Virus record (IMG/VR): IMGVR_UViG_2645727700_000001
Span: 1 to 64,000 of that record
Reading direction: 5' to 3' (one strand)
Length of the DNA stretch: 64,000 bases
Source: a virus
Taxonomy: Duplodnaviria > Heunggongvirae > Uroviricota > Caudoviricetes > Schitoviridae
A program made the position numbers and the translations under genes. Below the pieces are notes generated by a model. It worked only from the letters and a program-made list of their open reading frames with translations, searched no databases and was not told where the DNA came from. Position 1 is the first letter of the stretch. The number at the start of each line of letters is the position of its first letter. Below, piece by piece: positions 4,304-54,700 of the stretch.

Positions 4304-4549
4304 TTACTTTGCAAGCTGGGTATCGTCAGCTAACCATTCTTCTTCTGTCATTTCCCCAAGATAGTTAATACTATCTAAAGTGATCGTAGTTGCATTAGGG
4401 TTTACACGCTTAGCATCTTGTAAAAATACATCAGAAATCATATTAATTGCTGCAGCACTTACATAGGGAAACTTGCGCTCAAGAACTAATGTATGGTGTG
4501 TACCGGCATCAGATGATGCTACACAAAAGTAACGATGTGATTTTGCCAT
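4304..4549 (-). CDS. hypothetical protein
   Basis: 81-aa ORF; start ATG overlaps the upstream gene's stop. Confidence 0.35.
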   Translation of the reverse strand: MAKSHRYFCVASSDAGTHHTLVLERKFPYVSAAAINMISDVFLQDAKRVNPNATTITLDSINYLGEMTEEEWLADDTQLAK

Positions 4550-5196
4550 TAGGCAGCTCCTTTAAGGGGTAGACCGAGCTGTTTATTAAGGTGGTTTTTG
4601 TCTAACAATGCAATAGGCATAGGTTGCGTTTTAACCACTGGTTCCAAATGTTCGATCAATGGCTTAACTTCTGGCCACTGTTCATATAATTTGAAGAAGT
4701 TGCCCGCAGTACGGATGATGTTGGTCATCTCCTCAGTGAACGCTTCATACTCTACGTCCAGGTCTACAAGATCTGATTGGATCTCAAGAATTTCATTGAT
4801 CTCTTTGTGGTCTACATGAAACTCAATCCATTTGTCAGACATGAAGTACGGGAATAGTTCAGCCTTTTCTAAGTAGATAACAAGATCTGACACCATATCA
4901 GTGCGTGTACGCTGTTCTGAGCCATAATAATAAGTGGTACGTTTAGCAACTTTAACCTTCTCGCCTTTGTCATCGACAATGCGTAGGTTGATTGAGCGTG
5001 TCTTTGGGAGCCAGCCGTTAGGGAGTTTCTCCATATCGCGCTTACGGTTTCCAAGAAGGATGTCATATACACGCTGAACTACAGCGTATTTCTTTTTGTT
5101 GAGTTCTGCTTTAAGTCCAGAGAACTTACGTTGTGCAAGTACGTTTACGATGTCGGTGATGTCACCTTGTTTGAATTTACGTTTTAATGGATTCAT
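4549..5196 (-). CDS. hypothetical protein
   Basis: 215-aa ORF with good coding texture. Confidence 0.45.
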   Translation of the reverse strand: MNPLKRKFKQGDITDIVNVLAQRKFSGLKAELNKKKYAVVQRVYDILLGNRKRDMEKLPNGWLPKTRSINLRIVDDKGEKVKVAKRTTYYYGSEQRTRTDMVSDLVIYLEKAELFPYFMSDKWIEFHVDHKEINEILEIQSDLVDLDVEYEAFTEEMTNIIRTAGNFFKLYEQWPEVKPLIEHLEPVVKTQPMPIALLDKNHLNKQLGLPLKGAA

Positions 5197-5413: not shown

Positions 5414-5431
5414 AAAGCCCCGAAGGGCTTT
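5414..5431 (-). terminator. hairpin AAAGCCC-CGAA-GGGCTTT downstream of the SPFH gene
   Basis: 7-bp GC-rich stem, T-rich tail on the minus strand. Confidence 0.5.
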
Positions 5432-5513
5432 GTATAAAAGGTAAATGGGAAGCGTTAGTGCTTGGCCAACGGCCATGAGCACTAACGTTGATATGAAACA
5501 GATTAAGTACACA

Positions 5514-6335
5514 TTACTTAACGTTCAGAAGGGGAGTAGCGGAGCCGTTGCCCATAAGAACTGTATGCGTACCTTTACCTGCAAAGGCTTGTTGTGCATC
5601 AATTTCCATCTTGCGGATCAGCATTGGTGATAGAGATGCAGCAATCACACGGTTTGCATCAGCTTCGGCTTTTGCAGTGGTAAGGCGTACTTCTGCCTGT
5701 GCCAACGCTAAAGCTTTCTGACCTTCTGCACGGTTGATTTCAAATTGAACCTGAGCTGCCTGACGGATCGCTTCTTCTAAGCGTGGGTCAGTAGTTAATG
5801 AACGTACTGTCGCACCTGGAATATGGAATACGCCCGGCATTTCTTTATTCAAAGATTTCTGCAGTTCAGTCACTACATCTGCAGCAATTTCATCACGATG
5901 TTTATGGATCTCACCTGAATCAAACTTCGCTACAGCTTTGAAGATGGCTTCCTGAGCGTGACGCTTAACGTAACGTTCACCTACTACTTGGTCGCCGTCA
6001 GCGTTAAAAGATAAGTCACCTGCAAGTTTTGCAAGGGTCTCAGCCACACGGTTTGGGGCGATTGTGTAGCGCACATCAATGGCTACTTGTTGCATCGTTA
6101 CGTTGTCTTTGGTCTTTGGCTTAAGGTTTGCCAAAGGCACAGTCGTTTCACGTACACTGATTACTTTGATTGACTGGGTAAAAGTCTGATGAATACCAGG
6201 GGAAAGCTCCTCTGTTTTCATTTTGCCCAATGCCCAAGCTACGCCTACATGACCGGTTTCAACCTTTTCGTAGAAACAGCCTGTTAAGCCTAAAGTTGCG
6301 ATGCTGAGTGTGAGGATTCCAAGTAACTTTTTCAC
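5514..6335 (-). CDS. SPFH/band-7 (stomatin/prohibitin/HflKC-like) domain lipoprotein
   Basis: Signal peptide with lipobox LTGC; long Ala/Glu/Gln-rich coiled-coil typical of the SPFH C-terminal region (EINRAEGQKALALAQAEVRLTTAKAEADANRVIA). Confidence 0.65.
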   Translation of the reverse strand: MKKLLGILTLSIATLGLTGCFYEKVETGHVGVAWALGKMKTEELSPGIHQTFTQSIKVISVRETTVPLANLKPKTKDNVTMQQVAIDVRYTIAPNRVAETLAKLAGDLSFNADGDQVVGERYVKRHAQEAIFKAVAKFDSGEIHKHRDEIAADVVTELQKSLNKEMPGVFHIPGATVRSLTTDPRLEEAIRQAAQVQFEINRAEGQKALALAQAEVRLTTAKAEADANRVIAASLSPMLIRKMEIDAQQAFAGKGTHTVLMGNGSATPLLNVK

Positions 6336-6975: not shown

Positions 6976-7623
6976 TTACTTTTGTGTATTGAGTTGCTTA
7001 ATAATCATTTGAGACCATGGTTCGTACGCAGAGATCTCATTTAGTAAGTCCTCTGGTGCAGACCATTTTTGATCTTGTGTTTCATCTGTTTCTGCAATTA
7101 GTTTGGTATCAACTACAACGTTAACCCACAAACCAATATGTACAGCAGATACAGGGTCATTTAGTACAGCTAAAGCTAACTGAACGCCTGAAAGATCTGG
7201 TGTAAGGAAGTAGCCAATTTCTTCGCTCAATTCACGTGTAATTGAAGCTTCGAGAGTTGCTACGGCATTAATATTGCCTTCGTCATCCAGCACCACATCC
7301 GCAATGTCAGTATGACCGCCAACGCCAATGCTACGAAGGGCTGCAAGGCCTTTCTCACCGCCGTTTGTACCGCGAGAGTATGAAAGGTACTTACCATCTT
7401 CATTCTGAATGGTTACATACCCCAAGATTTGCGGGAAAGCATGGGCGATGTCATAGTTCAAGAGGCTCTTGTCAGAGGCATCCACAACACTGCGGTTGAG
7501 AAAGTGGTAATTGTTAGCAAAAATCTTCGCTAAGTTAACTGGATAAATACCAGGTGTTTCCGGGTCAATGTGCGAGCACTTAAGTAATGCATCTAATGCT
7601 ACGCATAAAACTGCAGGTTTCAT
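6976..7623 (-). CDS. hypothetical protein
   Basis: 215-aa ORF; palindrome element about 50 bp upstream. Confidence 0.45.
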   Translation of the reverse strand: MKPAVLCVALDALLKCSHIDPETPGIYPVNLAKIFANNYHFLNRSVVDASDKSLLNYDIAHAFPQILGYVTIQNEDGKYLSYSRGTNGGEKGLAALRSIGVGGHTDIADVVLDDEGNINAVATLEASITRELSEEIGYFLTPDLSGVQLALAVLNDPVSAVHIGLWVNVVVDTKLIAETDETQDQKWSAPEDLLNEISAYEPWSQMIIKQLNTQK

Positions 7624-7665
7624 TGGTTTCTCCTATGCGGAAAGAATTGTATGTCTAAAGTATCT

Positions 7666-7688
7666 ATTTACTCAAGTAAGTAAGTAAA
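7666..7688. promoter_or_regulatory. degenerate palindrome element (TTACTCAAGTAAGTAAGTAA) upstream of minus gene 6976..7623
   Basis: imperfect copy of the family. Confidence 0.4.
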
Positions 7689-7695
7689 CAAAGGT

Positions 7696-7953
7696 TCAGA
7701 CGTTGATTTGAATGGTTTGGTTTTCGATCAAACGGATGATTAGAAAAAACGCTAAAGCGAAGGGAATAATCCAAAAAGGGAATAACAGTATCATACCTGC
7801 TTTTGCAAATAGCCTAAGCAAATCTACAACTGTATAAAATGTTTTAACCATTTGATTTAAAACTTCTTTCCCTATATCACTACATACTGTAGGATAGTTT
7901 TTCACGGCACGTTTGACTAAGTTTGATGTTTGAAAGAGTGTTGTAGGTCTCAT
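7696..7953 (-). CDS. small membrane protein
   Basis: 85-aa ORF with a hydrophobic segment ILLFPFWIIPFALAFFLII. Confidence 0.35.
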   Translation of the reverse strand: MRPTTLFQTSNLVKRAVKNYPTVCSDIGKEVLNQMVKTFYTVVDLLRLFAKAGMILLFPFWIIPFALAFFLIIRLIENQTIQINV

Positions 7954-8020
7954 ATATACCTCATACCTGCTTAGGCTATTTCAATTTAAGAAATGTTTTG
8001 TTACATTTACGATTTGTAGT

Positions 8021-8050
8021 CTTACTTGCTTACTTAATTACTTACTTGAT
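8021..8050. repeat. direct array of CTTACTT half-sites (cttacttgcttacttaattacttacttga) upstream of parA
   Basis: three direct half-site copies. Confidence 0.4.
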
Positions 8051-8062
8051 TAAATAGGTCTC

Positions 8063-8080
8063 ACAGAGAGACCGTAAAAA
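8063..8080. promoter_or_regulatory. dyad element GGTCTCAcagAGAGACC upstream of parA (putative operator), related to the downstream tandem array
   Basis: Imperfect inverted repeat 8 bp upstream of the parA start; same half-site as the 9596-9805 repeats. Confidence 0.5.
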
Positions 8081-8087
8081 TATAAAT

Positions 8088-8702
8088 ATGAAAACAGTGG
8101 TAATTGCATCCCGAAAGGGTGGGTCTGGAAAGACCACAAATGCGCGTAACTTTGCTGTTGCTTTGATAAAGCGTGGCAAGCGTGTTCTACTAATTGATAC
8201 TGACCTTCAAGGTACTCTATCAAAATGGTGGAATCGCCGTACTGTTGAAGACTTAGACTTATTAGTAGTGCCCTACAGCCAAATTAAAGAGGCTCAAGCT
8301 AGTGCACTACGTGCGGGGTATGACTATCTAATTATTGATACACCGCCGGACTCTAATGAGGCAATCGAAGGTACTGTCAGTATTGCTGACTTTATCTTGG
8401 TTCCTTGCAAAGCCAGTCCGGATGACATCGAAGCTGTTGTGGAAACGCATAAGCTGATTCAGAACGCTGGCAAAGACTTTACGTTTATTGTGAATGAGGC
8501 TAAGCCAAATACAAGCTTACTGACATTGGCATTAGAAACACTGTCACAGCTTGGGCCAATAGCACCAACACAATACAACTACATCTCACATCCTACATCT
8601 GCAGTGTCAGGCTCAACTGTAATTGATACAGAGCCAAGCTCTAAAGCTGCAGAAGATGTAGTCAAACTCACTAATTATGTACTCAGTCGCGTCGGAGAGT
8701 AA
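8088..8702 (+). CDS. parA: ParA/Soj-family partition ATPase (small, type Ib-like)
   Basis: Deviant Walker A KGGSGKTT and the LLIDTDLQGT motif (ParA D-x-D-P-Q-G signature); 204 aa without an N-terminal HTH. Confidence 0.8.
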   Translation: MKTVVIASRKGGSGKTTNARNFAVALIKRGKRVLLIDTDLQGTLSKWWNRRTVEDLDLLVVPYSQIKEAQASALRAGYDYLIIDTPPDSNEAIEGTVSIADFILVPCKASPDDIEAVVETHKLIQNAGKDFTFIVNEAKPNTSLLTLALETLSQLGPIAPTQYNYISHPTSAVSGSTVIDTEPSSKAAEDVVKLTNYVLSRVGE

Positions 8703-8704
8703 CA

Positions 8705-8950
8705 ATGGGCAAAGCACCTTTATCATTAGACAGTCTTAAACAGGTTGCTGAGCAATCTGCGCCTGCTCAAACTTCTGGCCAACCGGATGTGGTAAAATCA
8801 GATGCACCACAGGTTACAAAGCAGTTATCTGTTAAAGTAACCTTACCTGTGTATGAGCGTTTGCGTAAAGCTGCTTATACGCTTGAAATGTCGCATCAGG
8901 ACATTGGTTCGGATGCTGTTGCGGAATGGCTAACGAAAAATGGATTCTAA
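8705..8950 (+). CDS. small protein downstream of parA (candidate ParG/ParB-like centromere-binding partner)
   Basis: 81-aa ORF, 3 bp after parA, overlaps the next gene; position typical for a type Ib partner. Confidence 0.45.
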   Translation: MGKAPLSLDSLKQVAEQSAPAQTSGQPDVVKSDAPQVTKQLSVKVTLPVYERLRKAAYTLEMSHQDIGSDAVAEWLTKNGF

Positions 8951-9596
8951 TTTAGACGAACTTAAAGCACAGACTCAGTTCTTTCACCTATTTAAAGCCA
9001 TGTACGATTCAGGTGACGTGGCTCAAATGGGTTCACACGCGTTTAACGTGTATTGCTATATAAAGTCATGTGTTAATTACGAACGTCCAGATGCATTTCC
9101 GTCAATCGAGACGATCTGTAAAGCAACTGGCGTTTCTAGGGCTAATGTATTCAGATGTATTCCTGTCTTAGTAGAGATGGGCTACCTCACAAAGAATACA
9201 TCGGGTAGACATACAATCTACAGAGTGTGTGAGAGGATACCCATGTTAGATGAAAACGGCGATGTACAGGCTACAGCATCTTGGGAATACATCCCTAAAT
9301 ACGCTGTAAAAGCTGTATCAGAACTTAAAGAATTGATTCAATCATCAGGTGATGTTAATGCAGCTCGCTACATTCACATCGAACACTTACAAGTTATCGT
9401 ATCCAATATTGAATCTGGCGGCGTACAAAACATTGTAGCCGGGGACAATATTGATAATAGTACTACCAATGCTATTCATGTCACGCGTGAAAGCCAGACA
9501 CTTGAAGATCATTTAAATGACCTGGCACAGCAGGGCGATGGTTCTACTGCAGCTAAAATAAAGCGCGGTATTAAGAAGAAAACTTCAACTGGATAG
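8940..9596 (+). CDS. winged-helix/HTH DNA-binding protein (candidate Rep initiator or centromere-binding protein)
   Basis: HTH-like segment ICKATGVSRANVFRCIPVLVEMGYL; stop codon abuts the first of seven dyad repeats. Confidence 0.5.
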   Translation: MDSNLDELKAQTQFFHLFKAMYDSGDVAQMGSHAFNVYCYIKSCVNYERPDAFPSIETICKATGVSRANVFRCIPVLVEMGYLTKNTSGRHTIYRVCERIPMLDENGDVQATASWEYIPKYAVKAVSELKELIQSSGDVNAARYIHIEHLQVIVSNIESGGVQNIVAGDNIDNSTTNAIHVTRESQTLEDHLNDLAQQGDGSTAAKIKRGIKKKTSTG

Positions 9597-9805
9597 GTCT
9601 CATGGTGAGACCTTTTCTTTTTCTATTAGTCTCACAGTGAGACTGATGCATTTTTGATTGGTCTCACTGTGATACCTATTGATTTATAAAAATAGGTCTC
9701 AGTATGATACCTATAAGTAGAGTCTAGTCTCAGTGTGAGACTGAGTACCCTTAAAAGGGTCTCTATGTGAGACTAATTAAGCCTTAATAGGTCTCACTGT
9801 GATAC
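9596..9805. repeat. array of seven about 17-bp dyad repeats RGTCTCA-N3-TGAKACY spaced about 30-33 bp apart (putative iterons or partition centromere)
   Basis: Copies near 9596, 9628, 9659, 9696, 9726, 9762, 9789; 6-7 bp stems with 3-nt spacers; the first copy is followed by TTTTCTTTTTC. Confidence 0.7.
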
Positions 9806-9918
9806 CCTAAAAAGAACTCTTTAGATTCTAAATTTAAAAAGATCTTTTTATGGTCTAGAACGGTTAAAATCTGTGGATAAAAATACCTACTTATCCACAA
9901 AATGCAGGAAATCTTAAA

Positions 9919-10104
9919 ATGGCTAAATTCCACGAACCAATTGCTTACTTGAACGAAGAAGAATTAGAACGAGCAATTCAATGGGGTACAATCCAACGTG
10001 AAGAAGCTCAGAAATCAGAAGATCAAATTTGGGATGAGTACGATGATCGTATTCTCCATACTTTGAATTCAAAACTTAAACAAATGCGAGGCTCTGTAGC
10101 TTGA
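9919..10104 (+). CDS. small hypothetical protein flanked by DnaA boxes
   Basis: 61-aa ORF with SD-like AGGAAAT upstream; may be non-coding origin DNA. Confidence 0.3.
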   Translation: MAKFHEPIAYLNEEELERAIQWGTIQREEAQKSEDQIWDEYDDRILHTLNSKLKQMRGSVA

Positions 10105-10150
10105 CTTAATCTTTGATTACAGTAGACTTGTTTTAAAGGTTAAATCCTTT

Positions 10151-10192
10151 AATTGGTCTGAAAAACCCTAGGAGCGAAGGCTTTTAGGGTTT
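10151..10192 (+). terminator. hairpin AAACCCTA...TAGGGTTT followed by TTTTCTTT
   Basis: stem-loop plus T-run after ORF 9919..10104. Confidence 0.5.
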
Positions 10193-10488
10193 TTCTTTAT
10201 GTATCGCAGTTAACATAATGTGCGTTATGCGAAATGTAATTACACAATTATCCACAATACTTTTTGAAAACAACAAGTTATGAATTCAAAAACTTTTTTA
10301 TGAAAACTATACTTATCCACAGTTGGAACATTTTGCCAATCAACGTGAATACCAAGCTTTAATTTGGCACTCACTATGCGTTGTAAACAGATTTTTATAG
10401 TACGAAGCTGAATGGCCACTGGTACACTTACGAGCACGTTCAGCAGCCGAAGGACTTAATACAATTGGTTTACCGCAGAGTTTACAGC

Positions 10489-10665
10489 TCATTGCCTTAC
10501 CCCACATTTGATACAGTCAAACTCACGGATGTCGTAAGATTCTGACCAGTTAATACGGCGATTGAAGATATGGACTATCCTTCCAAAATCACCACAGGCT
10601 TTACATGGTTTCTGTGTCATCACTTCAACCGATCTGACGAAGCGTTTTCTTGCTTTGGTGAACAT
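10489..10665 (-). CDS. small zinc-ribbon protein (CxxC...CxxC), missed by the 60-aa ORF cutoff
   Basis: Manual translation from the ATG at 10665: MFTKARKRFVRSVEVMTQKPCKACGDFGRIVHIFNRRINWSESYDIREFDCIKCGVRQ; strong SD AAGGAG 8 nt upstream; stop overlaps another small Cys-rich ORF (about 10340-10492). Confidence 0.4.
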   Translation of the reverse strand: MFTKARKRFVRSVEVMTQKPCKACGDFGRIVHIFNRRINWSESYDIREFDCIKCGVRQ

Positions 10666-10677
10666 GGAAGGTCTCCT

Positions 10678-11055
10678 TTAAACCGTTTGATCGGGCAACG
10701 CCCGATTCTTAATTACATTATGCTTCACTAGAACGCCGTACAGCTCCTCTTGGAGAGCTTCTGGCGTGTTCCATACATTCATACCCCTTAAAGCATTAAA
10801 CGTTACTGAGGCCCGTTTAGCGCGATCTTTGGCTAAGTTGTAGAGGGTTGCTGTGGCATAGGCATAATGCGCATCTGGGTGTCCGTACTTACGTGGTTTC
10901 ATTCGAGCTGTTTCAATACTGATTGGACGTTCTAAACCATGTAAGTAAATCCACTTATGTCCTGCAGACTTGACGACATAATAAGTACCTTCGATACATA
11001 CAGAATCGCCACGCTTGAGCTTCTTAAGCTCCTCGCTGTGCATGTGGTAAGTCAT
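10678..11055 (-). CDS. hypothetical protein
   Basis: 125-aa ORF. Confidence 0.45.
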   Translation of the reverse strand: MTYHMHSEELKKLKRGDSVCIEGTYYVVKSAGHKWIYLHGLERPISIETARMKPRKYGHPDAHYAYATATLYNLAKDRAKRASVTFNALRGMNVWNTPEALQEELYGVLVKHNVIKNRALPDQTV

Positions 11056-11336
11056 TAACCTGGTATCTCCTCTGCACGGATCTCCCAGATAAAGTCACGG
11101 ATACCACGATCAAAGGCACGGCCTTCCTGCGTATCACCATCAAAACCTACAGAACGACGTTCCAGAAAATCTAAGGTGCATGTGGTTGGATTTCCTACAT
11201 AAACGGTCTTAGCAAACTCATAACCACGCTTACGAGCCTTCTCAAGTTTGGATTCAGGCACAGGCTGAGCCATGAGCCAGCCAAGGAATATCAATGCCCC
11301 TAGAATTACCAGAGGCGTAAAGTGAGCTATGTTCAT
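11055..11336 (-). CDS. hypothetical secreted or membrane-anchored protein
   Basis: 93-aa ORF, N-terminal hydrophobic helix; stop-start overlaps both neighbours. Confidence 0.4.
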   Translation of the reverse strand: MNIAHFTPLVILGALIFLGWLMAQPVPESKLEKARKRGYEFAKTVYVGNPTTCTLDFLERRSVGFDGDTQEGRAFDRGIRDFIWEIRAEEIPG

Positions 11337-11605
11337 CAGTCGACAACCACTGTAGGACGTTTACGTGGACTGCATTTTTGGTAATGTTTAACCAGTTCTA
11401 TAAGCATCTGAAATCTAAACATGATGTTGTGATTAAGAATGAACTCATTACGAATCCAAAAAGCAGTTTCATTGATGCTACGGCCATCTTGAGGGTTAAC
11501 AAGGTGTACCATTTCCTTGATTTTTATCTTATGGTGCCGGTTAGCAATGCTCAGGAATTGCTTTACAGAAGTTGCATCATCTAAACGTTCACGGTACTTC
11601 ATCAA
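11336..11605 (-). CDS. hypothetical protein (paralog of 11732..11995)
   Basis: N-terminal MKYRERL shared with the next upstream ORF. Confidence 0.4.
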   Translation of the reverse strand: MMKYRERLDDATSVKQFLSIANRHHKIKIKEMVHLVNPQDGRSINETAFWIRNEFILNHNIMFRFQMLIELVKHYQKCSPRKRPTVVVD

Positions 11606-11731
11606 TCGTTCTCCATGTTTATGAATGCACCTTCGATAACGCTATCAATGTCGCTAATTAAGTTCTCTTTAAAGATCTCCTGTTCGCCTGGCGATAGCTC
11701 AAACCATTGGTCGTTGTGATACTTACTTAGG

Positions 11732-11995
11732 TCAATTGTCAGGATGTTCCCGACTTGAGTGATAATGCTCATATAGTTCCTTAATTAGTTGTTCCCGAAG
11801 GAATATTCCTTCACATTCAATGAACATCTCGCGGATGTAACGATAAGTTCTCACACCCCAAGCATGGTCTTTACCTAGTTGGGACATGAGCTGTTTTGCG
11901 AGTGCTTTATGTTTGGTATTGGCTGTCCGAAAGAACACAGCTTTTGAATCGATTTGCCCTAGCTTTTCTCGGTACTTCATAGCACCTGTGACCAA
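11732..11995 (-). CDS. hypothetical protein (paralog of 11336..11605)
   Basis: 87-aa ORF; MKYREKL N-terminus. Confidence 0.4.
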   Translation of the reverse strand: MVTGAMKYREKLGQIDSKAVFFRTANTKHKALAKQLMSQLGKDHAWGVRTYRYIREMFIECEGIFLREQLIKELYEHYHSSREHPDN

Positions 11996-12396
11996 TCCAG
12001 TTTCTCGCCAGATGCGACACGTCTGCGGTCAGGGGGTAGATACATGTGCTTCAAAGCATTTTCTGAGTGGTACATGTAATTACCGATGTCAGTAAGAATT
12101 TTGAATAGCGGGGGCAAGTCCTTGTCTGCGTAAGGCAGTACCTCTACGATGGTTGCGTTTGTCCATTCTCGGGGATGTGCGGTATGTAGTACGGTCCCAC
12201 GTTCATAGGTATTACACTTGTACATCACTGCAGCGTCAAAGCATTGATCGAGATGAAGCCATACAGGTACACCATGTAACTTTGTTGGGTGACGTTTCTC
12301 CTCGTCAGATACCCAATCCACTACAGGCTCAGGGTCAATTGTTCCATCTGGATTAGTACTGCCAGTTGGTGTGCCTAAATCATTGGTTTGTTTCAT
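11977..12396 (-). CDS. hypothetical protein
   Basis: 139-aa ORF. Confidence 0.45.
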   Translation of the reverse strand: MKQTNDLGTPTGSTNPDGTIDPEPVVDWVSDEEKRHPTKLHGVPVWLHLDQCFDAAVMYKCNTYERGTVLHTAHPREWTNATIVEVLPYADKDLPPLFKILTDIGNYMYHSENALKHMYLPPDRRRVASGEKLDWSQVL

Positions 12397-12743
12397 TACA
12401 CACCTCGGATAACGATGTTGCTTATGCTGCCTGTGTAGCTGTAATGAATATCCACTTGTAAGCCTGCGACCTCAGGGTGGATGTCTAACTGCTTCCGGAA
12501 CTCTTTCTCGCAACGTTCACGTGATTCACGTGTCATGTTGTCAATCAGTACTTTCCGTACATCGTCGTTGTAGGCTGAAAGGAAGTTTAAGAAGCCCCCT
12601 TGGTAGTCATTACCACTGGCCACAAAGTCTGCGATTGCCTGACCTACGAGGTCTGTAGGCGTAAGAAACTTACTTCGATCTGCCAGGTTGCAAGTCACGT
12701 AATCGTGCTCAGGGCTTTGATGTGTGCGTACGATTGCTCCCAT
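12396..12743 (-). CDS. hypothetical protein
   Basis: 115-aa ORF; TAATG coupling with the upstream small ORF. Confidence 0.45.
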   Translation of the reverse strand: MGAIVRTHQSPEHDYVTCNLADRSKFLTPTDLVGQAIADFVASGNDYQGGFLNFLSAYNDDVRKVLIDNMTRESRERCEKEFRKQLDIHPEVAGLQVDIHYSYTGSISNIVIRGV

Positions 12744-45644: not shown

Positions 45645-45712
45645 AATTAAACCCAAGAAAGGCAATGCGTAGCAGTACCATTGCCTTTTTCCATTTTAGA
45701 GGAGACATAGAC

Positions 45713-48700
45713 ATGGAACGTCTAGTAGCTAACCCTTTCATGGAGAAAGAGGAAAAAGTAGCGGCAGCTACAGCATCAAAAGTGGTACGTCAGGGTAACT
45801 TCGGTATCACTGGCAACCCACTACATAACCGTATTGATTCAGCCCGACAATCACTACAACGCTTCGATTCATTCCTTGAAGCAGACCGCAAGAAGCGCGA
45901 ACAAGAAGCCAATTACACCACTCCAAGCGATAACCTACGCAGATCCAGCCTTACTGAGCGTGCCCCTTCGATTGCACGTGTGTACGGCTCTCAGGCATGG
46001 GCAACAGTTAAGAAGGGTGTAGCGCAAGCTGCTGGTGGTCTAAGTGCAGGGTGGGCCGATCAGGAACGCATGAACATCCCGCGTGATGTGCAGGATGCCT
46101 ACAATCGTTATAAGCAAACTGGTTTAGCAACTAACCCAGAGGATGTGAAGTTACTTCATAGTCCGGCTTATCGTCAGTTCCAGATGGGTAATATTCAAGG
46201 TGAGAAGAAACCAATTGAAGGTAAGACTTTCCTTGAACAGCTTGAAGGTGCTGCAGCTTATGACAAAGAGGCTCAACGCCGTGTAGGTGATATGCGTAAT
46301 GGCATTCCTGACATGTTTGATTCTCATAAGCGCGTCAATCCGTTACTACAGGATGAGCGTGCTCAGGCTATGCAGCGTAACCGTGACAAGTACAACATCG
46401 GTGAACAACGTGCAAAGGCAGACGCATTAGAAGCTCAAGGCGAAACAGGCAAAGCTAAGGTTGTACGTGCGCTGGCAAACTTCCAGCAATTAGCACAGGA
46501 TACTATTGTTGCGGCACAACATCCGACAGCTTTAGGTCAAGACTTGGCAGCTATCGCACCATACGCAGTAACGGGTATGGCTGGTGCTACTGCAGGTGCA
46601 GGGTTACAAACTCAGGAAGATCATATCAACTCGAAGAAGCAGTACACGGAACGTACTGGTATTGCTATTCCTTCTGAGCTAGATGCAGCCAAAATGAAGG
46701 GTATGGCCGGTCTCAATTTTGCAGCAAACTTTGCTGAAAACATGGTAGTAGGTAATGCCCTCAAAGGTGGCGTTACTAACATGGGTAAAGCCTATGCTGC
46801 CAATGCTGCTGCAGGGTACACGCAGTCTAAGATTCAGACCGGTGCAGGTGCTTTACACTTTACCAATGAGACCGATCAAGAAGCGATTGAAGCTGCAGCA
46901 CTTGGCGGTGCTTTGGCGGGTGGTATTGCTGCACCTCATGCGACTTTACAGGCTGCAGGTAAAGCGGCTGATGTTGTAAAGGAAAAAGCATTTAAGGATG
47001 TTCGTGAGCAGTCAGCTCAACAACGTGCAACTTTTGAGGAGAATATTGACCCTACATCTACAAACTTCAACCCAAGTGAAGCCATTAACAAACAGACCCA
47101 GATTTTTGGCAATAAGGACGCATCTAAAGATGATTTAGATTTGGCACGTACAAATGCTAAGGATGCATTGCAAGCGGCTCATGACCGCTATGATGCGTTA
47201 GAGCGTAATCAACAATCTATCTCTGAGCGTTTAGAGGATGTTAACCAGTATCGACAAGAACTGGCTGACACCGAAGCAGCTTTACAAGCTGACCCAAATA
47301 ACGCTGCACTGTCAGAGTTCTACGATGGCTTGCAGGACTATATCAAAGAAGCAGAAGCCCAGCTCACTCCTGAATACCTTCAAAGTGCGTCAGACGCGCT
47401 GAAAGCAGCGTCTAAGCATAAGGACGATGCAATTGCAGCGTATGAGGCATTCAATGGCTTAAACGAAGTTAAGACCGACACTAAACAGTCTGCAGATGTG
47501 ACAACTAAGCATACTGAAACCTTGACCAACGAGAAGGCATCTGACGCTGAAAAAGCCAAAGCTGCTGAGCATGTCACCAACTATCCAATGATGTATAAGC
47601 CTGAGGATCTCCTACAGATTGCCGATGACTTATCTAATCATTTAACAGATGCTCAACGTACAACATTGCGTGAACTTTCAGATCTTCGTGTACAAGAGCA
47701 CATGACTAAAGGGCTTGATGGTGTATCTGCAGACATCAAGAAAGGAAGTCAAAACTATAAGAGTCTTGAGAGTTACTTTGTTGATCGTGATCGTGCAATC
47801 CGTTTAAAGGATGATTCACGCTTACGCCAGTTAAGTGATCAGTTCGACCGCTTACAGGCAAGCTTTGAGGTTAAGGATCGCCTTGCAAGCAAATTGTTCG
47901 ACCGTTCAAAGGAGACGGGGGGCAAGTACCAGGTAATCCGTACCGAAGCCGGGACATGGAAAATCAATACTGGTAAGTTGATGTCTGAGGCAGCAATCAC
48001 TAAAAACGGTGGTTTCACAATCCATAAAGGTTCTGAGAAACTGGTTAACAGCATTAAGACTGATGCGGCGAATGTAAGTAAGGCACATGGCTTATTCCAG
48101 AAGCTAGACTCTGCAGACTTCCGTTCAGTTGTCAAATCTGAGATTAAAGCTGAGACCGGTTCAACTTTACCTAAACAACCTGAACCGGTCTCAGTTCCTA
48201 CGCCGTTGGCAGTGCCAAAAGGGGAAGCTGTGGTCCCGAACTTGAAGGATGTAACTCCGGAAGTTCGTAAGGCGGAACGTGGTAAAGCATTTGAATCTCG
48301 TGATCTGGTTAAAGCTCACCTTAAGCAAAAAGTATCTCAAGATGGAACGAATCCTTTAATTGATATTCCTGACTTCCGTAGTGCCTATGACAAGGCTGAG
48401 GACAAACGTGCGTTCATTGATAGTCAAGTTAAGAAGCCTTTGAGTGATAAACAACACACTCAGGTACAACACTTTAATGAGTTCACCAAAGGTTACGATT
48501 CAGCCCTAACCAAGTTGTTCACGCCTAAGACCGGTGATAAGGCAAAGTACAACTATCAGGATATGGCTCAGTTCTTGGCAGCAGACGGTAAGTTACCTGA
48601 AAACACACGCACTGCTTTGGCTGTAGGCGCGTATCAGTGGCTTATTGAGAATGGCGCAACCACTCGTACCACTGATGCTGATATTGCCCGTTTACTGCAT

Positions 48701-51700
48701 GTAGACGCTGAGGATGCTATCCCTACTCAAGTGCGTAAGATGCTCGATGGTGTAGGTACGCCATACCGTACGGTTATTCAATCTCTTGGCCAACGTGCAG
48801 CACAGGCTTTACAGCTTAAAAGCGATAAAGATTCTGACCCTAATTATTTAGGCAAGATGGAAGCCTCGTTAGGTGCATTGGCCTTACATACACTGGTTGA
48901 TATGGGTTTAGTAAAAGAGACAGCTATCAAGTCTACTGACTTTGAACGTGCTAAATCTCAGGTGACTGGTAAAGCTCCGGAAGCCGTTGAAAATGCTCTT
49001 GAGACACACACTTTCATTGCCCCAAACCATGAGTCAAAAGGCGGGGAGATTGTACGCAATGCCCACATCGAGCAGATCTTGGAGCACAACAAAGGCACTC
49101 AGGGCATCCTAAGTGACATCTTTAGTACTGATAATGGTTTAGTGGCTCCGGCACTTGAGAAGCCGACAGCATTCACACAAACCACTATTAAGAATAGTAA
49201 GACTGAAATCCCTGAGTACACACGTCAGGCGTTGGAGAAAGCTCAACAACACCCGTATCGAGTACGTCCAGAGATGGTTCGTTTGTATCAAGGGCTTTAC
49301 AACCATGCACCGGAATCCCTTAAAAAGATTCTGGGTATTGATGACTCTAAGGCCAATATCGACAAGTTCCATATTACCCAACGTGAGAACATGAAAGCCA
49401 AGTTCGCTAATGAGTGGACAAGCTTGGAGCGTGGTCTTGATTTCATTAATGGTTTAGAGGTTAAAGATGGCGAGTTCCAACCGATCTACTTTGAACCGGT
49501 AGTATGGGCAAACCAACGTGTAGGCTTCAAATCAAACTTATTCAACATCCAGACTTCTCAGATTCATCGTTCATTGGCTGGTATGGCTGCTCACGAAACC
49601 AAGTTCACAAAAGGTATGTCTGCACTTGAAGATGGGAAGGCTACAGTTTATGGCCAGTTCCTTCGTGCGGTCGCTGCAGGTGCGGAAGATGTGAAAGGTA
49701 CACTTGTATTCCCTGAGGGCTACAAAGGTGGCAAGACCGTAGATAAAGCCCCAAGTGAAGTATTCCTTCCAGTATTCCAAGCATATTTAAATACTGCTCC
49801 GGTACGTGAAAGCATTGCAGCAATGCAACGTGTTCAGGCTGATGTAGATGTGCTTAAGATTCCAAACCCTAAGGATGTTGACTTGGTTGCAAAGCAAGTA
49901 GCTGAGATGGGAATGGGTCCGCATTCTGCATTGGCATTAAGTGAGTTGGCTCGCTTCATGGGTACAAAAGATGGTGCCGAGTTCTCTACTCATCTGGGTA
50001 TGGAAAGTGATGGTGTAACCAATGGCCCGGCAATCTCTAACTTGTTGTCAGGTACTTTGACTGCTGAATTGGCTATGCAGTTCGGTATGATTCCGAAGTC
50101 TGAAAACCAAGACATTAAGAACTACTTTGATGTTAAGACATCAGGCAAGGCTGACTATTACGAAGGCATTGGCCAGCTTCAAAAAGAGTTCATTGATCAG
50201 CTTAACCAGAATGAGTTCAGCAAGCATCGTGACGTTACTGCAGCAATGGATACCCTTGCAGGTCAGTTTGGTACACGTAATTCAGCCAAGAAGATTGCAA
50301 CGCCGTTCAACTACTCTGCAGGTTTCCCGTCTCTCAAAGCAGCAATTGCACGTGAGATGATTAAGGACATGTACAGTAACTTTGCCAAGACCGCAGAGGA
50401 AGCAAACTCTACTGACTCTGTTAAGGCTGCAAGTGCACAGCTCCGTGCCAACACTATGATTGATGCGATCAATACAGCGATTCGCTATAACAATACAATG
50501 AAGGGCACCAAAAAGGTCAGTGAGATTCGTACAAAGGTTGGTAATGCAGACGGTATCGTAGATGCTAAGCGCATGGCTGAATATGTACTGACTGCAGACC
50601 AAGTACGTGCACTGACAAAGGTGAGTGAAGTAACACACGGCGAAGCTTCCGAGCGTGCAATTAAGAAAGCTGCAGATGCATACATCAAGACCCGTGACTT
50701 GAACATTAAGATGCATAATGCAGCTTATGGTCTGTACAAGATCACACATGATGCATTGGTTCGTCAGGCTGAGAGTGCAGGTGCTAAAGACGGTACTTTG
50801 GCTTCAACTAAGTCTAAAACTCAGGATGGTAATGCCTATACCTTGTTGGAAGGTGTATCGCAGAATACCTTGGATAAAATCCAAAAATCACTTAAGCCGT
50901 ATGCACCGGTGATCGTTTCTGCCATGGGCAACAAGTCTTCTAACAAGATTGAGTCTGGCCTATTCCTTTCTGATATGAACACTCAGTTCTCACGGGACAG
51001 TAAGAATCAGGTTAAGTCACTTGTGTCCCCTCAAAATGGTAAGACTAAAACCAAGACCTATAACACAGGCGTATTGGAACGTGTTGAGACAAATCCGGGT
51101 GTACGTGGCAGTGCTATGTATGTGCAAGGCTCTGATAGTTACAACTCGGTAGGTACGGTTTCTAAGATCCCTACAACCAACTTGCATGATGCAAACATCG
51201 GTGCTGCAGATAAGATGCATGAGGTTGGTAAGATTCAAAACCAAGAGTTCTTTGATCTGGCAGTAGGTTATCGCTCCCAAGTTGAAAACTTCATGGCTTT
51301 GGTTCGCCCACTACAAGGCATGGTAGCTCTTAAAGATAAGACTCAATTCACGAAGGCTGAGTGGAATGATGTGAAGGCCACTTTTAATGGATTACGTCAG
51401 GCACTCGTTGATTCCGACATCATCAGTGAAGGTGATGTAAATCGTATGGATGCAGGCCAAGTACTCGCAGCAATGGCCAACGCCGTGTTTGCAAGTGAAG
51501 TTCGTAAAATTGAATCATTGCAGGGCATGTACAGTATTCACCAGTACGGTGCCGAAGGCGGTGAAGTAGTTCTCACAGACAAACACCATGCACAGTTAAA
51601 GGCTGAGCTTAAATCACTTGAACATGATCGGGCTGCTATGGCTGCAGACATGCATAAGCTTGCTGCAAAGTTACGTGAGGCAATGACAACTGAGTCTCGT

Positions 51701-54700
51701 AAAGACGTAGCTGAATCGATTAAAGATAAGTCTGCAGATGGCTCGGCCAATTTTGAGGATTTGGTTTCTATCAAGGATAACCGTACAGATCTTCAAAAGG
51801 GATTGGATGAGTACCAGGGCAAAGAAGTTCCATTGGATAAAGTGCTTGATCTGGTACGTGCAGAGGTTAAAGGCAACCATGTTCAAGAGCTATTATTCAA
51901 GACACTTGAAAAGGTTATCCCTAAAGACCTGAAAGTTGAGTATTCAACTGATTCATGGAAAGGGGAGAAAGGTGCAGCAGGCTGGTACAACCCAAAAGCT
52001 CACAAAATCACTGTACGCGCATTGGGTGATAAATATGCCAATGTTACTCCGGAGCTTTTCCTCCATGAGTTCATTCATGCCGCAACCGTTGGTGTCACGA
52101 CTAATGCTGCAAAACACGGCGAAGTTGCTGATGCAATCAACCGTATCGAGTCTCTCAGAAGTGAAGTGGCCAAACAGTTACCAGATCAATTCAGCGAAGC
52201 TCTTAAGAGTAAAGAGGAGTTCCTTGCTTGGGGCTTAACAAACCCTAAATTCCAAGATGCTTTAAAGACAATCATTGTACCTAAGGGTGATCGTTCACGT
52301 ACTGGTTTAGCGTCAGCGTTTAAAGTGTTCGTAACCAATGTTATGAAAGCACTATTCTCAGGTGAGAAACGTAAGCCAAATGCGCGTGAAATCTCAGCAA
52401 TGGAAGCTCTGATCATTGATGCTGCAGACGTAATGCAGTACACCGAGCAATCGAGCAATGTGAAGAATGAAAACTTAGAACTTCCATTCAACATGATCCC
52501 GAACACCAATGCCACACTTGAGAAAATGCGTACTGCAAAGGCAAGTGATGTAATGGGTGCGTTTGATGGCTCTCAGTTATCTAACGAGTTCAATACCCAC
52601 TTACAGGGTGTGATGGAAAAGTCTATCGACCGTTTATTCGATTCAATTGGTCGTGACCACTTACAAGACACTTTAGCGAAGCCAGTGGACTACAACCCAA
52701 GCGATATTGCTTCATTGTATGGTTTAACTGACCGCGAGGGTTATGTCGCAGAAGTGGTCGCTACAGTGGTTGATAGCATTCAGAACTCAGGACAACATAC
52801 ACCTGTGCTTAAACAGATGCATCAAGCATATCAGGATGCGCGTCAGAAGCTCTCTGCGGAAGATTTCCATGCAGGTGAATGGAACACAGCGACAAAGGCT
52901 GAGAAAGCCTTAGCACAGCGTAAATACGACCGTGTATTTAATCCTAAAGCAGCAGGGGATAAGAGTTCGTATCTGGCGACCTTCTTGGCATTGGCTGTAG
53001 GTAGCGAGAAGTTCAGTGCAAAATTAGACTTCACTACAGAACGTCAGGTGAAGGGTGAGCGTAGTTTGTTTGAACGTGCGGTAGACCTATTCAACTTTGC
53101 AATTGATTGGGTAATGAATCGTCTCGCAGGTGTACACCACACAGATAAGGTAAATGCAAAGACCACAGCTCTTTTAAATAGATTGGTTTCGTTGGACATC
53201 AGTAAGCGTCAACAAGCAGTTTCACGTTTTGACCGTGCATGGGAGACTTCTTTTGATGCTTTGGCAAAGGGTGGAAAACTTGGGGCTAAAGCGGTTGCAA
53301 GCGTTGCCAAAGCAACAGGTATGGAAAAGAGCCGTTACGCACCTATCCGTGTATTAGGCAAACTTGCCAATACTGCAGCACGTGATTCGGTCGATCAGTT
53401 ACCTCAGGTAGCAAAGGACTTCCGAGATCACAACTTCCCTAATCAACGTTTTGGGGAAATGTCTGAGCTTATGAATGAAATGACCAGCCCAAGTCAGTTC
53501 AAGCAGGTTATGGAAGGTATGCTCCGGGAAACAGTATCGATTCAAACAGAGCGTAAAAACTGGATTGATAACACCAAGAAGATGGTACTTAACGGCTTTA
53601 CAGACAACGGGGCAAACTTAACCAAGGAGCAGCATACAGCCGTAACTTATAGCTTACTCCGTACTGATGTTCGGTCGCTTCTTGATGGGCGTAAGTACTC
53701 GGATGTAACTAAGTTGATCACTGACGATAAAGCTCGGAGCTATGAAGCTCGTAAGCTAATCCGTGAGATTGAAAGTCTTGAGCCGAACATGGCCAATGAT
53801 ATGATCAACCGCACAAAAGATCTTGCTTGGTATATGGTCTCAGGTAAGTCTAGTGATGGCCTTGCTAAGAATGCCCAAGCTATTGCATCTGGTTTTGGTG
53901 GTCAGATTACGAAAGCAAGTGTTGAAGCCATTGACTCTAAGATTGTTAAGGCAGTTGACCAGCTCGCTACATTGTTTGCACTGGATTACACCAGTAAAGA
54001 GAATTTGGCTATTACTAAGGAGTTACTACAGTCTGAGTCTGCAGGTATTGAAGGATTGATTAAGATGCATGGTTTTGCTGCAAAAGACTCACAAGGGTTA
54101 TTTGCAGACAACTCTACATCAATGGTCAAAGGGTATTTACCTGAGATTACACATACTTACCGTGAGGCTCGTCAAGCGCATGTCTCAATGACTAAGGAAT
54201 TAGAGAAAGAAGGATGGGTAAGAGTTGGTGAGTTAGAGCGTGACCCATTAGATACTTATGGTACAGATCAAGCACTCTTTGTTTTGAAGGATGGGGGAGA
54301 GCAACGTATCGTGTCAGGGGCAATGACTTTCGATAATACACATCGTAAAGGTTCAGTTGTTTCAGATGGTCGCTCAGGCACTATTACAGCAGAGTATAAG
54401 AATGCCTTGAAAGACCGCGTGAATGCACGTGCTAATACGCCACATCGTTTGTATGACCCGCGTACTGCAAAAGGTGGTCGTATGACTCCGGTTTACGACA
54501 CTAAAGGCCAGATCACAAATTTCACTTATGAAATGAACAATGCAAACCGTGACGAACTACTTGTCCGTAACAACAACTTTGCAGATCTGCTTGGTGCATA
54601 CGTTGGTAACAATGTAAGTACGGCCCCAACTACGAAGCAGAACAAGGACATTGCTAATGCGATGTTTGATGACTATGAAGCTAACTTTGCCAAAAACCCT

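Follow-up and report, generated by a model that had tools for sequence, protein, structure and literature searches.

The origins P1 oriR and F oriS and those of pSC101 and pPS10 share one order of modules: DnaA boxes, an AT-rich region, iterons, and a rep gene. In P1, the DnaA boxes occur at two places. N4-like phages, which have three RNA polymerases and a replisome that is self-sufficient, are studied as models of a strictly lytic way of life, and to our knowledge N4 replicates without host DnaA. Because these phages encode their own replisome and N4 is DnaA-independent, a need for DnaA in this group is not obvious. DnaA boxes, iterons, and an AT-rich stretch are textbook plasmid biology, so such an element would be unsurprising on its own; what is unusual in the present case is its setting, an N4-like phage that carries a complete plasmid maintenance cassette. 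P1, N15, SSU5, and the Acinetobacter AB_1 elements likewise combine a tailed-phage genome with plasmid replication and partition genes and are found as separate replicons in isolates, but the virion and replisome genes of the phage described here are N4-like (Schitoviridae), whereas the AB_1 elements are distantly SSU5-like siphoviruses of 101–122 kb. None of the ten well-defined phage-plasmid types catalogued in PMC12977533 is N4-like.

The 64-kb stretch analyzed here (hereafter the window) comes from an Acinetobacter sp. A47 assembly and represents the genome of an N4-like (Schitoviridae) phage; proteins identical to its ParA and PolA are encoded on a 74,273-bp contig of Acinetobacter sp. 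A47. It has in common with N4 and the Humphriesvirinae phages Pylas and FSL SP-058 a virion RNA polymerase (3403 aa in the window), small RNA polymerase II subunits, a helicase, an SU10-type portal, and a genome of ~70–75 kb, and its PolA is 51–52% identical to those of Pylas and FSL SP-058. In contrast to N4 and Pylas, which lack the ParA/ParG-like/Rep cassette, the window contains both this cassette and perfect copies of the DnaA box TTATCCACA. A first-pass annotation had deduced a proteobacterial host from these boxes. That host is now identified as Acinetobacter through the exact protein matches and homology; the box itself is not diagnostic, since most bacteria share TTATCCACA as their DnaA-box consensus.

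The window contains exactly four perfect copies of TTATCCACA, all within the 450 bp in which they were originally noticed. Box 1 (9872–9880, minus strand) and box 2 (9891–9899, plus strand) are inverted relative to each other across a 10-bp gap, as first described, with their TTAT ends pointing toward each other, while boxes 3 (10248–10256) and 4 (10313–10321) both lie on the plus strand. The earlier estimate of less than one chance occurrence in 64 kb also holds: 0.61 copies are expected, none of 100 dinucleotide-preserving shuffles reached four, and a Poisson estimate for at least four boxes in any 450-bp stretch is ~4e-9. One-mismatch variants of TTATCCACA number 20 in the window against 17.8 expected; as they are not enriched, the cluster is not a compositional artefact, and the concern that the 9-mer might be common throughout the genome is answered in the negative. 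Phage N4 (70 kb) has no perfect box and two relaxed TTATNCACA boxes, and Klebsiella phage Pylas (70 kb) has no perfect box and one relaxed box. The shuffles, the variant count, the Poisson estimate, and these two control genomes rule out a chance or compositional source of the boxes.

Our analysis indicates that the boxes are probably host-initiator sites of a plasmid-type, iteron-containing (theta) origin that belongs to the parA/parG-like/rep maintenance cassette of this N4-like Acinetobacter phage. The first-pass annotation had proposed recruitment of host DnaA, for origin firing or for transcriptional control. An origin role is the best supported of these, although the three elements that give the boxes their context had gone unnoticed: a putative replication initiator gene, rep (8940–9596, plus strand), seven 17-bp palindromic repeats that are putative iterons (9596–9806, consensus GGTCTCAnnnTGAGACC), and an AT-rich element (9808–9870, CTAAAAAGA...AAATTTAAAAAGATCTTTTT) proposed to be the DNA-unwinding element. 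The initiator-like gene lies beside repeats that are its putative sites, the AT-rich element adjoins the repeats, and the DnaA boxes follow. The window order of rep, seven repeats, AT-rich stretch, and boxes thus mirrors that of iteron plasmids, and the same modules in the same order are found in P1 oriR, F oriS, pSC101, pPS10, R6K gamma, and RK2 oriV. As in iteron plasmids, an extra putative initiator site is present at a promoter, where it would serve autoregulation, and a partition cassette is adjacent.

The palindrome array begins at the rep stop codon, and its start-to-start spacings are 32, 32, 35, 31, 32, and 32 bp. The repeats are three helical turns apart and so would all lie on the same face of the helix. 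An eighth palindrome, GGTCTCACAGAGAGACC, occupies 8057–8073, 15 bp before the parA start codon, and is a putative operator for the initiator-like protein; a related locus, L007, has a copy at the equivalent position before parA. A pattern search for the palindrome returned 12 matches against 2.07 expected, eight of which are the 8057–8073 site and the 9596–9806 array.

Within the AT-rich element, 9810–9859 contains the least stable 40-mers of the region (dG −41.6 kcal/mol, the lowest 0.23% of the window). The unwinding element had previously been placed at 10260–10310, in the AT-rich spacer between boxes 3 and 4 (10257–10312). That stretch is indeed AT-rich and unstable (10260–10319 is 80% A+T and falls within the least stable 0.6–1.3% of 40-bp windows), but we consider 9808–9870 the likelier site because it is less stable and because relatives preserve both its sequence and its position. 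Its motif is kept in L006, L002, L008, and L077 and is still recognizable in Paraburkholderia, Pseudomonas, Methylotenera, and Polaromonas loci. The 10260–10310 stretch, which sits between convergent transcription units, shows no conservation in any relative that could be recovered and is probably a secondary unwinding element.

The 218-aa rep product is a winged-helix (HTH_36) protein whose top fold and profile matches are replication initiators. Its Pfam matches are limited to HTH_36 and generic winged-helix families, with no match to Rep_3, and profile comparison links its N-terminal winged-helix domain weakly to O-like initiators (PHROG 678, 2e-6). RepA_N initiators of staphylococcal multiresistance plasmids (pSK41/pTZ2162 RepA, PDB 4pta) and DnaD/DnaB primosomal proteins are among the closest known systems. 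The PHROG family of the protein is annotated as ‘unknown function’, and NCBIfam has no family for it, for the 81-aa small protein encoded upstream, or for the 61-aa ORF downstream. The initiator-like winged-helix family comprises at least 343 clusters of ~200-aa proteins and is unnamed. This is the second unusual point about the locus: the initiator family has no curated name, yet its origin layout is defined by comparative data and is clear enough for a direct test.

Several features separate the locus from described iteron plasmids. The initiator is not a Rep_3 protein (two winged-helix domains), the repeats are 17-bp palindromes ~32 bp apart rather than 19–22-bp direct repeats, rep is transcribed toward the iterons instead of away from them, the two box pairs are separated by a small gene and a terminator, and the replicon is an N4-like phage. 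With no Rep_3 match and palindromic repeats, membership in the Rep_3 family is ruled out. The lambda ori/O system offers a second comparison, in that its dyad-symmetric sites suit dimers and its AT-rich region lies directly beside the array. However, lambda ori is inside the O gene, whereas the window array is downstream of its gene, and the window has no adjacent P-like helicase-loader gene, the next gene being the 61-aa ORF without a family match; these two differences rule out a lambda-type origin. Nor is lambda known to rely for melting on DnaA boxes next to its AT-rich region.

To place the layout in a wider context, we compared 61 homologous loci with readable downstream sequence (labeled L001, L002, and so on), 44 of which are non-redundant. 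Every homologous locus has a palindrome array directly 3′ of the gene. The repeats differ between loci in step with the protein (GGTCTCA.., GGTATC.., GGTCTAC.., CAGCTCA.., GGTGACA.., and CCCTTAT..), whereas the AT-rich motif and the boxes are retained. We counted boxes in the 355 bp after each homologue gene, taking the expectation from the flanks, and found 44 TTATNCACA boxes across the 44 non-redundant loci where 1.2 are expected. Position 5 is the degenerate one in the accepted DnaA-box consensus, and of the one-mismatch variants, 25 of 38 inside this zone have their mismatch there, against 6 of 46 outside it. The full layout of gene, palindrome array, AT-rich element, and TTATNCACA boxes is present at 28 of the 44 loci, including a Polaromonas plasmid, Pseudomonas integrative elements, and other N4-like contigs. 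The remaining 16, among them both loci of the type found in phage Ab2712, lack a TTATNCACA box beside the array; the Ab2712-like loci have a single box ~1.2 kb (L001) or 1.0 kb (L078) downstream. Box 1 has a counterpart at the same position in L006, L002–L005, L008, and L077, and L006 has TTATTCACA at the equivalent of box 2.

The cassette of ParA, small ORF, and HTH protein is also found on the 104-kb Polaromonas plasmid pA29BJ2, where two perfect boxes and one TTATTCACA box are interspersed among the palindromes. Its record has no other annotated Rep, which is weak evidence because plasmid gene tables are incomplete. Among distant homologues, one on a Sphingobium plasmid adjoins a canonical RepA, which counts against the origin reading, and those in Sphingobium and Bacillus smithii plasmids are uninformative or ambiguous. 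In phages, megablast of 8500–12500 against a phage collection and a single-protein scan of viral contigs each gave no match, and a profile scan of viral contigs gave one locus.

These comparisons bear on two other accounts of the boxes and repeats. The boxes could be a datA-like sink, with the amplified phage genome titrating DnaA and thereby stopping chromosome initiation. All four are perfect, high-affinity 9-mers, three with common extended flanks, and a block on host initiation might be expected to benefit a lytic phage. We regard this as very unlikely: low-copy plasmids and integrative elements, which would have little use for titration, carry the same boxes, gene, and array, and a sink needs no fixed position beside an AT-rich element and a repeat array. 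The IHF consensus site that is present in datA was not found in 9500–10400, and GATC occurs in the region at background frequency. The box cluster thus lacks both the IHF site of chromosomal DnaA-only regions (oriC, datA) and the GATC clustering of enterobacterial oriC. The second account takes the 17-bp palindromes as hairpin promoters of the virion RNA polymerase and the boxes as unrelated. N4 early promoters are hairpins upstream of early genes, with a 5–7-bp stem and a 3-nt loop whose bases are conserved, a geometry that the 7-bp stem and 3-nt loop allowed by GGTCTCA-nnn-TGAGACC would match, and the phage does encode the 3403-aa polymerase. Nevertheless, seven copies lie 32 bp apart with no intervening genes, their loop bases are not conserved (TGG, CAG, CTG, GTA, GTG, TAT, and CTG), and changes in the array sequence track those in the winged-helix protein. 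Equivalent arrays, with spacers of 2–5 nt, also occur in plasmids and integrative elements in which no virion RNA polymerase gene was seen (in the annotation of pA29BJ2 and in the flanks of the others). Hairpin promoters therefore strike us as the least credible explanation, with a very low probability.

The two genes upstream of rep resemble a plasmid partition system. parA (8088–8702, plus strand) encodes a small, 204-aa ParA/ParF-type partition ATPase that matches Pfam AAA_31, CbiA, and ParA as well as PHROG 164 (ParA-like partition protein, 7.5e-40); its score against NCBIfam ParA_partition is 147 bits, under the cut-off of 180. The next gene (8705–8950, plus strand) encodes an 81-aa ParG-like protein of the ribbon-helix-helix centromere-binding type. 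For a profile built from eight orthologues of this protein, the top PDB match is TP228 ParG (1p94; E = 1.7e-4), and ribbon-helix-helix proteins of the CopG family come next. The order of a small Walker-type ParA and a small ribbon-helix-helix protein is that of type Ib systems, and the cassette resembles TP228 ParF-ParG-parH in its small ParA, in the small protein that follows, with a disordered N-terminus and a predicted C-terminal ribbon-helix-helix matching ParG, and in its candidate tetramer boxes of 8-bp period upstream of parA. The boxes of TP228 are ACTC, whereas those of the window are ACTT, and the window has a third gene, rep, in the cassette. The ACTT array (8021–8050, with copies at 8024, 8032, 8040, and 8044) is a putative operator/centromere for the ParG-like protein. 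Its boxes are short, AT-rich, and statistically weak alone, but similar 8-bp periodic arrays occur upstream of parA in L006, L002, L007, and L008.

A third gene in the cassette raises the question of whether the palindrome array is itself a partition centromere, with the 218-aa protein as the centromere binder or adaptor of a three-component ParA system and the boxes incidental. AspA-ParB-ParA of pNOB8 and sopABC, with sopC downstream, are systems of this kind. In both the phages and pA29BJ2, parA, the small gene, and this gene stand in that order within one cassette; the downstream palindrome array is like F sopC in position and form, the same palindrome recurs at the parA promoter, and a sequence-profile search of the PDB with the 218-aa protein gave only marginal winged-helix matches, the best of which are the centromere binders TubR and AspA (E ~0.003). 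Set against this, the ParG-like protein and the ACTT boxes upstream of parA already make up a predicted complete type Ib partition set. ParA is also missing from other settings of the gene and its array: integrative elements of Pseudomonas and Stutzerimonas (gene order int, one ORF, alpA, rep) and a Methylotenera contig, in which they lie between virB3 and virB4 and which has an IncC/KorB pair of its own. Since the gene and array occur without ParA, the 218-aa protein is not simply the centromere-binding protein of ParA, and we consider a centromere role for the array improbable, with only a small chance of being correct.

Downstream of the first box pair lies a conserved 61-aa acidic ORF (9919–10104, plus strand), situated between the two pairs. 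Orthologues are found in L006 (40% identity), L001 (26%), and L078, and searches of Pfam, PHROG, and NCBIfam gave no matches. The ORF is followed by a terminator-like hairpin (10160–10195) with a 16-bp stem, which is probably bidirectional, given the A-run ahead of it and the T-run behind; L006 has the same type of hairpin after its small ORF. Boxes 3 and 4 are ~350 bp beyond the first pair, between convergent transcription units, and the stop codon of the last leftward gene (10340–10342) comes 18 bp after box 4. A single perfect box is located at a similar convergent junction in Ab2712 (L001, 5914–5922) and in L078 (5755–5763). Local alignment of 10196–10345 with the lone-box region of Ab2712 scored 45, no better than shuffles (35 ± 5, maximum 59), so homology of the second box pair is unproven. 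A sigma-70 promoter scan was at background level (9 against 9.4 expected), and Rfam searches of 7500–11000, L001, and L078 gave sub-threshold chance matches only.

In E. coli, DnaA is able to act as a promoter repressor and to stop RNA polymerase during elongation, and the arrangement just described could be read as transcriptional control in which DnaA regulates the ORF at 9919 and acts as a roadblock or insulator at 10248/10313. The first pair is 20–47 bp upstream of the ATG of the 61-aa ORF, an arrangement common to L006, and the second pair has the hairpin on one side and, on the other, the 3′ end of the last leftward gene, with its stop codon at 10340, much as the lone boxes of Ab2712 and L078 directly follow a hairpin and T-run at a similar junction. 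The association with the small ORF is not maintained, however: L002–L005, L008, and L077 keep boxes at the array and AT-rich element without the ORF, Ab2712 has the ORF without adjacent boxes, and in plasmids and integrative elements the boxes lie among the palindromes or directly beside them. The orientation of the junction boxes varies as well (plus in the window, minus in L001 and L078), and regulation of transcription leaves the conserved AT-rich element unaccounted for. We judge transcriptional control unlikely as the main explanation, while giving it more weight than the three alternatives above. Transcriptional-control and origin roles are compatible with each other.

For a plasmid-type origin, the elements suggest the following mechanism. 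Dimers of Rep would bind the seven palindromes (9596–9806), and host DnaA would bind the inverted pair (9872–9899) on the opposite side of the AT-rich element, so that Rep and DnaA could jointly melt 9808–9870. Melting would let a replicative helicase load, either host DnaB or the phage’s own helicase together with its primase. The pair at 10248/10313 may be an auxiliary DnaA site that stabilizes a DnaA oligomer or loop, or it may bound a second meltable stretch. Rep bound to the 8057–8073 palindrome would regulate the cassette, and ParA and the ParG-like protein, acting through the ACTT array upstream of parA, would segregate the copies. The sequence elements, their conserved layout across loci, the excess of boxes after the homologous genes, the fold and profile matches of the proteins, and the occurrence of these phage genomes in bacterial assemblies are observed; the binding, melting, and helicase-loading steps, along with use of the origin in the plasmid state rather than the lytic one, are our inference.

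The genomic distribution of related phages is consistent with such a state. Ab2712, deposited as a sewage phage, is also present as the circular “plasmid” pRBH2-3 (75,126 bp), deposited as a plasmid of a clinical isolate. The two are 99.6% identical over the 8.5 kb compared between pRBH2-3 and virion-derived Ab2712, and pRBH2-3 carries an N4 gp56-family capsid gene and a 10.9-kb ORF of virion-RNA-polymerase size. The protein cluster that includes the Rep-like protein of Ab2712 is recorded on ~150 contigs (88+2+20+18+17+4+2+1+1) with the source name A. baumannii, and the longest contig of most members is 72–77 kb. N4-like structural and replication genes thus coexist with ParA, a ParG-like protein, and rep, on separate replicon-sized contigs in isolates. 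Taken together, these observations suggest that phages of a type regarded as strictly lytic are able to persist in plasmid form. A broader proposal, which we advance tentatively and at slightly less than even likelihood, is that this N4-like lineage consists of true phage-plasmids, that is, ~74-kb low-copy Acinetobacter replicons with ParF/ParG partition and a DnaA-assisted palindromic-iteron replicon, and that the same initiator family also drives proteobacterial plasmids and excised integrative elements. Plasmid persistence, if true, bears on the choice of N4-like phages for A. baumannii therapy, on the classing of such contigs as plasmids, and on how lytic phages gain temperate-like lifestyles. 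Presence in isolate assemblies might also be a sign of chronic or carrier infection.

A literature search of limited coverage, which does not prove novelty, found nothing on plasmid carriage of N4-like phages or on ParA cassettes or DnaA boxes in their genomes, nor on the replication of pRBH2-3 or pA29BJ2. In pA29BJ2, the GC skew has an extreme near the locus that is a maximum, not a minimum, and in the window the GC skew tracks gene orientation.

Within the window, the DnaA-box 9-mer TTATCCACA has exactly four matches, all perfect: box 1 at 9872-9880 on the minus strand, and boxes 2, 3, and 4 at 9891-9899, 10248-10256, and 10313-10321 on the plus strand. Dinucleotide-preserving shuffles give an expectation of 0.61 per window and never reached four; at this rate, the probability of at least four boxes falling within any 450-bp stretch is ~4e-9. 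Because one-mismatch variants remain at background (20 versus 17.8 expected), the cluster is not accounted for by composition. The first-pass annotation of four perfect clustered boxes, with boxes 1 and 2 inverted and facing each other across a 10-bp gap, is borne out as written, and the 9-mer is not common everywhere, as a compositional artefact would be. The boxes are real and non-random. They are very probably functional DnaA sites, most likely as components of an iteron origin that is assisted by DnaA and belongs to a par-rep cassette.

This cassette runs rightward between leftward phage genes and comprises parA (8088-8702, +), a gene for an 81-aa protein (8705-8950, +), and rep (8940-9596, +), which encodes a 218-aa HTH_36 winged-helix protein, the putative initiator. 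The 81-aa protein is ParG-like by profile: its top PDB hit is TP228 ParG (E = 1.7e-4), and ribbon-helix-helix proteins of the CopG type come next. Upstream of parA lie putative ACTT boxes with an 8-bp period (8021-8050), which recall the tetramer boxes that serve TP228 ParG as operator and centromere; similar 8-bp periodic arrays precede parA in four relatives. Judged by sequence, ParA, the ParG-like protein, and the short periodic boxes would be all that a type Ib partition set requires, and for this reason Rep would supply a third function.

Seven 17-bp palindromes (GGTCTCAnnnTGAGACC) start at the rep stop codon with spacings of 32, 32, 35, 31, 32, and 32 bp. Beyond them, at 9810-9859, duplex stability reaches its regional minimum (within the lowest 0.23% of window 40-mers), and then comes the inverted pair of boxes 1 and 2 (9872-9899). 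This order of rep, iterons, meltable AT-rich stretch, and DnaA boxes is the mirror image of the module order in the plasmid origins P1 oriR, F oriS, pSC101, and pPS10, while the dyad symmetry of the palindromes recalls lambda ori. On the strength of these two likenesses, 9596-9899 can be read as the core of a theta-type origin. Rep dimers would occupy the palindromes, phased three helical turns apart, and together with DnaA on the inverted pair would flank an unwinding element at 9808-9870 and open it jointly, after which a helicase, host or phage-encoded, would be loaded. An eighth palindrome copy (8057-8073), which follows the ACTT boxes and lies 15 bp before the parA start, would allow Rep to autoregulate the cassette. 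The first-pass annotation, which proposed recruitment of host DnaA and suggested 10260-10310 as a possible unwinding element, is partly supported: it named the right protein and general role, but its anatomy was incomplete and its unwinding element is the less likely one.

The homologues of rep come from phage and plasmid records, species-representative genomes, metagenomes, and SRA assemblies. Wherever a locus includes sequence beyond the gene, a palindrome array lies directly 3′ of that gene; the array sequence varies by lineage and tracks the protein, and the array's end is marked by a recognisable AT-rich motif, CTAAAAAGA...ATTTAAAAAGA. The 355 bp following the gene in 44 non-redundant loci contain 44 TTATNCACA boxes, against 1.2 expected from flanking DNA, with at least one box in 28 of the 44. 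Position 5 is the degenerate position of the accepted DnaA-box consensus, and it is the site of difference in 25 of 38 one-mismatch variants within this zone compared with 6 of 46 outside. In sequence terms, the enrichment and position-5 bias are a signature of selection for DnaA binding. Four other readings fit these comparative data poorly: the array as a centromere, the boxes as a DnaA sink, the palindromes as hairpin promoters for the virion RNA polymerase, and chance as the source of the boxes, which is rejected.

The unit also occurs outside phages. In Polaromonas plasmid pA29BJ2, ParA, a small ORF, and the HTH gene form the same kind of cassette, and the palindromes after it have two perfect boxes and one TTATTCACA box interspersed among them; the gene table of this 104-kb plasmid, which is incomplete, lists no further Rep. 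A rep-like gene with its palindrome array, the AT-rich motif, and TTATNCACA boxes occur in chromosomally integrated elements of Pseudomonas, Stutzerimonas, and Paraburkholderia (L016-L029); in Pseudomonas and Stutzerimonas elements the unit follows int, one ORF, and alpA, without ParA. A Methylotenera contig (Methylotenera loci L019, L022, and L024) has the unit between virB3 and virB4 alongside its own IncC/KorB pair. These contexts suggest a widespread, unnamed replicon module of excised or conjugative elements. Neither the cassette nor any perfect box was found in phages N4 and Pylas.

Between the two box pairs lie a conserved 61-aa acidic ORF (9919-10104, +) and a strong hairpin (10160-10195) with A- and T-runs on its two sides. 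The ORF has no family assignment; orthologues occur in relative L006 (40% identity), Acinetobacter phage vB_IME_Ab2712 (26%), and the Ab2712-like phage L078, and the ORF is missing from three further lineages (L002, L008, L077), in which the origin adjoins polA. Boxes 3 and 4 stand on either side of an 80% A+T spacer. Because the last leftward gene ends at 10340, they sit where two transcription units converge rather than at a promoter. They may serve in transcriptional control by DnaA, which could coexist with origin function, and may act there as an insulator or roadblock. A single perfect box stands at the same kind of junction in both Ab2712 and L078, directly after a hairpin, but alignment of the window's box region with that of Ab2712 scored no better than shuffled sequence. 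Within the DnaA-assisted origin, this pair may instead provide auxiliary DnaA binding; the P1 origin likewise has DnaA boxes at two places.

Beside box 4, the leftward block closes with two short ORFs (55 and 58 aa; 10340-10665, -) that are rich in cysteine and zinc-ribbon-like. PHROG 8738, a family of unknown function, includes one of them, and the equivalent part of Ab2712 contains a zinc-ribbon ORF of 74 aa. The two Ab2712-like phages share a ~500-bp non-coding stretch (5415-5939 in the Ab2712 locus L001, 5285-5779 in L078; 74% identity over 528 bp) that spans from the small-ORF terminator to the downstream DnaA box, ending in a hairpin and T-run followed directly by TGTGGATAA. This candidate non-coding RNA contains no ORF, matches no Rfam family, and is missing from the window.

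One ORF of the window (45665-55876), at 3403 aa, is as long as an N4-type virion RNA polymerase; the window also encodes a T7-like small RNA polymerase subunit, the AAA and vWA pair, an SF1 helicase, PolA, and an SU10-type portal. Its PolA shares 58% identity with that of Ab2712 (Schitoviridae) and 51-52% with the PolA proteins of Humphriesvirinae phages, and proteins on a 74,273-bp contig of Acinetobacter sp. A47 match its ParA and PolA exactly. Gene content, PolA kinship, and these exact matches therefore identify an N4-like phage genome sequenced within a bacterial isolate.

The window comes from a bacterial isolate assembly, and a counterpart of the related phage Ab2712 is likewise recorded from a bacterial isolate. 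Over the 8.5 kb compared, Ab2712, whose deposit describes a phage from sewage, shares 99.6% identity with pRBH2-3 (NZ_CP110465.1), a circular record of 75,126 bp filed as a "plasmid" of a clinical A. baumannii isolate. This record has a capsid gene of the N4 gp56 family and, at 10.9 kb, an ORF of virion-RNA-polymerase size. The cluster containing their Rep-like protein is recorded on ~150 contigs with A. baumannii source names, the longest contig being 72-77 kb for most members. Among 72,556 plasmid records, this PolA occurs in one, pRBH2-3, itself a cassette-bearing phage. A resolvase-family serine recombinase gene a few kb from the cassette in Ab2712/pRBH2-3 (11189-11821 in locus L011) and in L078 (7995-8630) might resolve multimers, as would suit plasmid maintenance. 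The carriage data fit a phage-plasmid or stable carrier lifestyle. No N4-like type is among ten well-defined phage-plasmid types (PMC12977533); the AB_1 type of Acinetobacter is an SSU5-like siphovirus of 101-122 kb (PMC12977533). Our partial coverage of the literature found no description of a plasmid-type origin or carriage in N4-like phages. As an origin type, the locus is a variant of a known plasmid design; the more interesting lead is that it sits in an N4-like phage that turns up in many isolate assemblies. Separately, an ORF at 4549-5196 (-), conserved in position in L078, contains an Nmad5 (nucleotide-modification-associated) domain, which hints at DNA or nucleotide modification in this phage lineage.
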